Origin: a virus
Lineage: Duplodnaviria > Caudoviricetes
Length of the DNA stretch: 64,000 nt
Strand: one strand, 5' to 3'
Virus record (IMG/VR): IMGVR_UViG_3300042477_000769
The position numbers were made by a program, and so were the translations under genes. Every line of letters begins with the position of its first letter. Positions within the stretch are counted from its first letter, which is position 1. A model generated the notes under the pieces. That model made no database searches. It saw only the letters and a program-made list of their open reading frames with translations, and was not told where the DNA came from. Positions 11,817 to 12,172 of this stretch are shown here, piece by piece.

Positions 11817-12172
11817 GGGGATAATATAGATTCGACGTAGTTTGACATAATAGTATGCAGGTCCCTGATGATTGCCAGAGGGTTAACACAGCAATCAACG
11901 TATAAATGCTAACGATAATGCATTTGCTCCACAAGCTCTTGTAGCTTGATTGGATAGTCTAAGAAGAGATTTCTTTGGTATTCTACTAGGCTATTAACCA
12001 CTAAAGATAGATGTAATCTTGGTTACGGATGTTACATTAAATTACACAGTATCTAGCCGGGATGGGCGAATCCAAACAATGTTGATTAGTACATTAAACT
12101 AATCTAAACTTGTGAATGAATTCTATTTATGGATAATTGCGGACGGTGGGGCAGTGCCACCTATCTCCGCTA
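11817..12172 (+). ncRNA. ssrA: tmRNA; tag (A)ANDNAFAPQALVA
   Basis: 5' GGGGATA...GATTCGAC; acceptor stem GGGGATA/TATCTCC with G3-U; T arm GGTGG/CCACC; ATAAAT then resume GCT 11908 to TGA 11947-11949. Confidence 0.93.

Follow-up and report, generated by a model that had tools for sequence, protein, structure and literature searches.

Phage-encoded tmRNAs are known from several groups of viruses, namely the huge phages (Al-Shayeb et al., 2020; PMC7162821), the Melnitz-like marine phages (PMC9004378), as well as the mycobacteriophage Bxz1 group and the Bacillus phage G (PMC4131195). In both the huge-phage (PMC7162821) and the Melnitz (PMC9004378) surveys, tmRNAs were assigned with ARAGORN. The mycobacteriophage DS6A, for its part, encodes a tag-less RNA limited to a tRNA-like domain, for which a decoy role has been proposed (PMC4131195). 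Respective to the elbow of the tRNA-like domain, i.e., its T-loop and D-loop, G-for-U replacements in the T-loop were recorded for Caulobacter and jakobid mitochondrial tmRNA in a comparative study of 2005 (PMC1168896). The two-piece tmRNA of Alphaproteobacteria (RF01849, alpha_tmRNA) presents in the Rfam alignment the consensus ...CCCGGG-GGCgGUA-CCCGG...ACCA, together with the D-loop AAAuAGGAUCGAC.

The stretch of DNA considered here, hereafter the window, corresponds to 64,000 nucleotides of the IMG/VR virus record IMGVR_UViG_3300042477_000769 (Duplodnaviria; Caudoviricetes); it is phage-like, with about 32% G+C and mostly co-oriented ORFs, and carries a real, structurally intact tmRNA gene, which belongs to a giant phage of lake origin. 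This gene lies at positions 11817-12172 (+) and is matched by RF00023 (62.9 bits, E 3.4e-22, for a gathering score of 47) over model positions 1-374. It is a one-piece gene of standard order and is not permuted, the 5' strand of the acceptor stem being located 345 nt upstream of the 3' strand. Its relatives were found in 28 IMG/VR loci (L001-L028) recovered by means of a Thg1-like protein, on contigs of up to about 480 kb, and amount to 23 distinct tmRNAs. The alignment of these 23 sequences, which covers the pseudoknot stems minus the pseudoknot second strands, gives 68 consensus pairs, 54 of which exhibit compensatory change, and helix 2, helix 5 and the pseudoknot stems are conserved with covariation. 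As the window tmRNA retains 66 of the 68 pairs, a count among the best of the set, a decayed pseudogene could be ruled out. The tag frame (11908..11949, +) is likewise intact and alpha-like; running from a GCU resume codon, of the GCN type, to a UGA stop, it encodes ANDNAFAPQALVA, which has a hydrophobic, Ala-rich C-terminus. The tags of the relatives, i.e., ANDNAFAP(L/M)ALAA, ANDNAFAMAA and similar sequences, all end with AA, whereas the VA end of the window tag is unique.

The T arm (12145..12161, +) combines the stem GGUGG/CCACC (12145-12149 and 12157-12161), retained with covariation, and the T-loop GGCAGUG (12150-12156) instead of the tRNA-type UUCRANY. In the D-loop analogue AUAUAGAUUCGAC (11824..11836, +), the dinucleotide A12-G13 (11828-11829) replaces the canonical GG. 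Expressed in tRNA terms, the changes would amount to G18 becoming A and both U54 and U55 becoming G, with the G19-C56 pair presumably retained. Both elements of the RF01849 elbow, i.e., a GGCRGUR T-loop and a UAG D-loop, are found in the window gene, which also shares with the alphaproteobacterial two-piece tmRNA a tag of the ANDN..AP.ALAA type; unlike the latter, however, it is not circularly permuted, possesses the standard multi-pseudoknot helices and has a discriminator G rather than A. Such an elbow is widespread. With one genome considered per prokaryotic species, the GGCRGUR T-loop was present in at least 120 bacterial genomes and, among the matches listed, 103 were permuted genes, mostly from Alphaproteobacteria. 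The one-piece search pattern also drew permuted alphaproteobacterial genes bearing a chance TCGAC upstream and the matches were therefore filtered, after which genuine one-piece GGCRGUR tmRNAs accounted for 11 of the 120 matches listed, belonging to the Vulcanimicrobiota (Eremiobacterota), Candidatus Saccharibacteria and one unclassified bacterium. Six of these 11 genes were put through Rfam and all six match RF00023 (83-124 bits). The Eremiobacterota and Saccharibacteria genes resemble the window gene in their standard order, GGCRGUR T-loop and UAG or CAG D-loop, but they are cellular, end with ACCA, and their similarity to it is confined to the tRNA-like domain. As for viruses, the pattern GGGGCRGTRCC-N7/8-TCCACCA was detected in at least 120 contigs, where circularly permuted genes prevail among the matches listed. 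The D-loop is YAG in about 221 of the 223 other GGCRGUR tmRNAs among the matches listed. As such, the combination of GGCAGUG with a UAG D-loop is an established alpha-type alternative to the UUCGA/GG pair and no phage invention.

Within the related loci, this elbow coexists with others. The T-loops GGCAGUG, GGCAGUA or GGCGGUA occur in about 13-15 of the 28 loci, the remaining ones exhibiting UGCAAU (4 loci), 8-nt loops (2 loci) or the canonical UUCGAnU (11 loci). The 6-nt loop UGCAAU, with an AG D-loop, is that of L012/L014/L016/L027, and the 8-nt loops UCUCGGAU and AGUCGGAG, with a GG D-loop, are found in L001:2586-2936 and L020:9198-9555. In the 23 distinct related sequences, the D-loop is without exception AG in the presence of GGCRGUR or UGCAAU and GG in the presence of UUCGA-type loops. 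On the tree of the tmRNA bodies (23 genes), the T-loop class changes at least five times, or eight times when four states are considered, and the D-loop follows the switch in every independent pair, of which the two located on well-supported branches are too few for significance. The case of L005:7337-7688 and L016:7751-8105 is telling, with bodies 92% identical and 17-nt T arms 47% identical (CAGGG-GGCAGUA-CCCUG and UCGGC-UGCAAU-GCCGA, respectively); from this discrepancy, the T arm seems to have been swapped as one unit, in what looks like a cassette-type replacement. The phage tRNAs of the relatives retain canonical T-loops. The exact T arm of the window was found in no viral contig and no metagenome contig when near-identical relatives were sought, and blastn of the locus against GenBank phages returned zero matches.

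The elbow has a direct bearing on detection. When run on the whole window, ARAGORN reported neither tRNA nor tmRNA, the latter because the T-loop is non-canonical; over the related loci, it picked up 10 of the 11 tmRNAs with a canonical T-loop and none of the 17 with other T-loops. Surveys based on this program (PMC7162821; PMC9004378) will consequently undercount one-piece tmRNAs with an alpha-type elbow, and it is precisely in being one-piece, alpha-elbowed and missed by ARAGORN that the window gene departs from the phage tmRNAs surveyed so, along with the lack of SmpB in the complete genomes of its relatives. The tmRNA of L008:8867-9218 was also missed despite its canonical T-loop UUCGAUU. 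Regarding Rfam, RF04321 (tmRNA_permuted) fires at 48-60 bits on L005:7239-7459, L002:5454-5689 and L020:9121-9330, where upstream sequence, a tRNA-Thr gene in L005, lies directly against the 5' portion of a standard tmRNA; the permuted calls are probably false and caused by this adjacency.

The acceptor stem comprises 7 bp, the 5' strand GGGGAUA (11817..11823, +) being paired with UAUCUCC (12162-12168), and includes the alanine identity pair G3:U70, the G:U pair being invariant in all 23 aligned sequences. The 3' strand region (12162..12172, +) continues with the discriminator G at 12169 and then CUA (12170-12172) in place of the discriminator A and CCA of a standard tmRNA. All 28 related loci have a discriminator A, followed by CCA in 25 and by CAA in 3, the ACAA-ending tmRNAs representing two distinct relatives (L004 and L024/25); G73 with CUA is thus unique to the window among the 29 genes. 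When IMG/VR was scanned for this T arm with a G at the discriminator position, three matches came up, all of them high-GC chance occurrences without a T stem, and no genuine G73 tmRNA with the T arm of the window was found there. G73 is real in the record, and the G discriminator is the only unexplained peculiarity of this genome.

A sequence-only reading of the window had delimited the gene at exactly these coordinates and described an intact G3:U70 pair, a GGCAGUG T-loop departing from UUCRANY, a UCUCC-G-CUA end, a tag ending with LVA and no smpB within the window. Every one of these statements proved correct upon direct reading, translation of the tag and domain scans of the ORFs, and the Rfam search it had proposed returned the full-length RF00023 match above the gathering score. 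Its interpretation held only in part: the anatomy stands and CCA completion is a fair inference, while nuclease evasion as the cause of the T-loop found nothing in its support. The T-loop, which it called non-canonical, is common elsewhere, where it constitutes the RF01849 consensus and occurs in bacterial one-piece tmRNAs as well, and the unencoded CCA is ordinary here, other phages of the group having tRNA and tmRNA genes that also lack it. It had itself named commonness of the variants among host-clade tmRNAs as an observation that would speak against it, and commonness in cellular tmRNAs applies to two of the three features.

Trimming to C74 followed by completion by a CCA-adding enzyme belongs to the established tRNA maturation pathways, and a gene end of the N-C-U-A form may well fit this scheme. 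Several suppressor tRNA genes of the relatives end with N73-C-UAA and the other phage tRNAs encode CCA; the CCA-less suppressor tRNA(CUA) genes, with N73-C-UAA or N73-C-AAA ends, are located at L005:11944-12018, L007:11100-11172, L019:12311-12384, L022:7960-8031 and L012:10999-11071, and the tRNA-Thr genes of the relatives have an encoded CCA. Each of the four essentially complete relatives (433-481 kb) possesses a PF01743 nucleotidyltransferase (PolyA_pol/CCA family), and tblastn of these CCA-family enzymes against the window gave zero matches. As regards charging, G3:U70 is the dominant alanine determinant. Substitution of A73 reduces alanylation in one AlaRS system (PMC11392972), and charging of the window RNA may for this reason be poor.

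The tmRNA gene takes part in a conserved module. A Thg1-like gene (tRNA-His guanylyltransferase family; 10950..11723, +; PF04446, 6e-17; phrog_4717, 2e-39) constitutes the conserved upstream neighbour, the tmRNA being found 0.3-3 kb downstream of it in all 28 related loci, usually past a tRNA-Thr array. The conserved downstream neighbour is a small Cys-rich (zinc-finger-like) ORF of 75 aa (12216..12443, +), unassigned to any family, whose homologues start about 40-47 nt past the tmRNA in 11 relatives, and the sequence next to the window tmRNA is free of frameshifts. As synteny is preserved on both flanks, the window gene has a 3' end that is neither truncated nor replaced, and GCUA arose from point substitutions; given the usual spacing of the downstream ORF, replacement of this end through an insertion or integrating element was ruled out. 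In the related loci (e.g., L005:6995-7688, L007:6996-8320), the Thg1-like gene is followed by a maximum of four tRNA-Thr genes, which span all four anticodons, then by the tmRNA and the zinc-finger ORF, beyond which come a Pth2-like gene and then the tRNA(CUA) suppressors. As with the known phage tmRNAs, the ssrA gene is complete, encodes a proteolysis tag and belongs to a phage genome where it stands among genes for tRNAs and translation; the tRNA-Thr array has been lost in the window and in L010, and the 64 kb of the window hold no tRNA at all. Ahead of the gene, a sigma-70-like promoter, TTGACA-16 nt-TATATT (11744..11771, +), agrees with 11 of the 12 consensus positions and precedes the mature 5' end by 46 nt; a TTGACA box is similarly close upstream of the tmRNA in L010, the closest relative. 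No intrinsic terminator was predicted for the window tmRNA. Further downstream are found genes for a Pth2-like hydrolase and IF3 (14533..15379, +; PF01981, PF05198, PF00707) and two tandem ClpP-family genes (22454..23676, +; PF00574, 6e-44 and 7e-49), whose products are possible degraders of tagged proteins. Elsewhere, the window ORFs of 110-240 aa comprise one for ribosomal protein bS21 as well as those for a peptide deformylase, an MT-A70 methyltransferase and a DksA/TraR zinc finger; the window also contains two TnpB/IS605-OrfB-type genes (PF01385, PF07282) at 822-1982 (+) and 23704-24921 (-).

No SmpB domain was detected among the 34 window ORFs of 110-240 aa nor in the other window ORFs scanned, and neither SmpB nor AlaRS is encoded by any of the four complete relatives. 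A phage AlaRS or SmpB co-evolving with the RNA was ruled out on this basis; as a consequence, the RNA must satisfy host enzymes, SmpB being presumably supplied by the host.

Considering these elements together, the window gene is rather probably a functional phage tmRNA that borrows SmpB, AlaRS and EF-Tu from the host and needs completion of its CCA end. We infer that the RNA is expressed, matured, charged and used for tagging as follows. Transcription would proceed from the gene's own promoter and RNase P would cut the 5' end, while the 3' end would be trimmed to G73 or G73-C74 and then, by a CCA-adding enzyme of a family that related phages encode, converted into GCCA. The host alanyl-tRNA synthetase would charge the RNA via G3:U70, albeit probably at a lower efficiency than if it carried A73, and host SmpB and EF-Tu would deliver it to stalled ribosomes, where ANDNAFAPQALVA would be added as a Clp-type degradation tag, the phage itself carrying two ClpP genes.

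Two changes in the final 4 nt and the VA end of the tag would nonetheless fit relaxed selection, which goes against a functional RNA. The 3' end could be crippled, A73G and C75U blocking efficient charging, so that the gene would be in early decay or its RNA would act as an uncharged decoy soaking up SmpB and blocking host trans-translation. We consider this rather unlikely: along a long branch, the RNA has retained its tag frame, every pseudoknot stem and 66 of the 68 pairs, features that would be dispensable for a decoy and lost from a pseudogene, and the dominant alanine determinant G3:U70 is in place. Its appeal lies in the singularity of G73 with CUA among the 29 genes and of the VA tag end, in the lowered alanylation caused by A73 substitutions in one tested AlaRS (PMC11392972) and, for the decoy form, in the lack of an own SmpB in this phage group and in the reported inhibition of tmRNA by uncharged tRNA-like-domain RNAs, perhaps by SmpB titration (PMC4131195). 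The parallel with the tag-less RNA of the mycobacteriophage DS6A is that of a phage tRNA-like domain that may act on host trans-translation without an own SmpB, but the window gene differs from it by a complete mRNA-like domain and pseudoknot helices. Distinctly unlikely is the related proposal that the tmRNA elbow is an exchangeable cassette under diversifying pressure and that the G73/CUA form, poorly chargeable, mainly sequesters host SmpB; there, the pressure could stem from matching to differing host SmpB or from elbow-directed defence.

It is deemed very unlikely that G73 and U75 stem from faulty assembly or sequencing, or from a minority variant in a phage population whose genuine end is ACCA. 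It is true that a single sequence is available, that its exact T arm is absent from the viral and metagenome contig collections and that all the changes are transitions, but two errors within 4 nt of a coherent, high-complexity region are hardly to be expected in a consensus assembly, and the surrounding reading frames are unbroken. The idea of the sequence-only reading, namely evolution of the altered tRNA-like domain in the phage as a means of evading host nucleases that cut tRNA-like RNAs, appears highly improbable, given that Alphaproteobacteria have this very elbow as a rule, that it is present in two other bacterial phyla, and that no T-loop-specific defence nuclease was identified in this analysis. 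The repeated switching of elbow type, at least five times on the tree of the 23 related bodies, the divergence of the T arm alone between genes with 92% identical bodies and the canonical T-loops kept by the phage tRNAs would be in line with such an escape; recombination or matching to the host SmpB, however, explains the switching equally well.

The tmRNA, IF3, Pth2, ClpP, peptide deformylase, bS21, DksA/TraR and MT-A70 genes make up a dense set for translation and quality control in the window. The alpha-type elbow recurs in cells and viruses and is not to be read as a phage counter-defence. Sister phages with canonical and alpha-type elbows (e.g., L005 and L007) lend themselves to experiments on the recognition of the elbow by SmpB, EF-Tu and RNase P, and the single G73 gene constitutes a natural test of the need of AlaRS for A73 on tmRNA.
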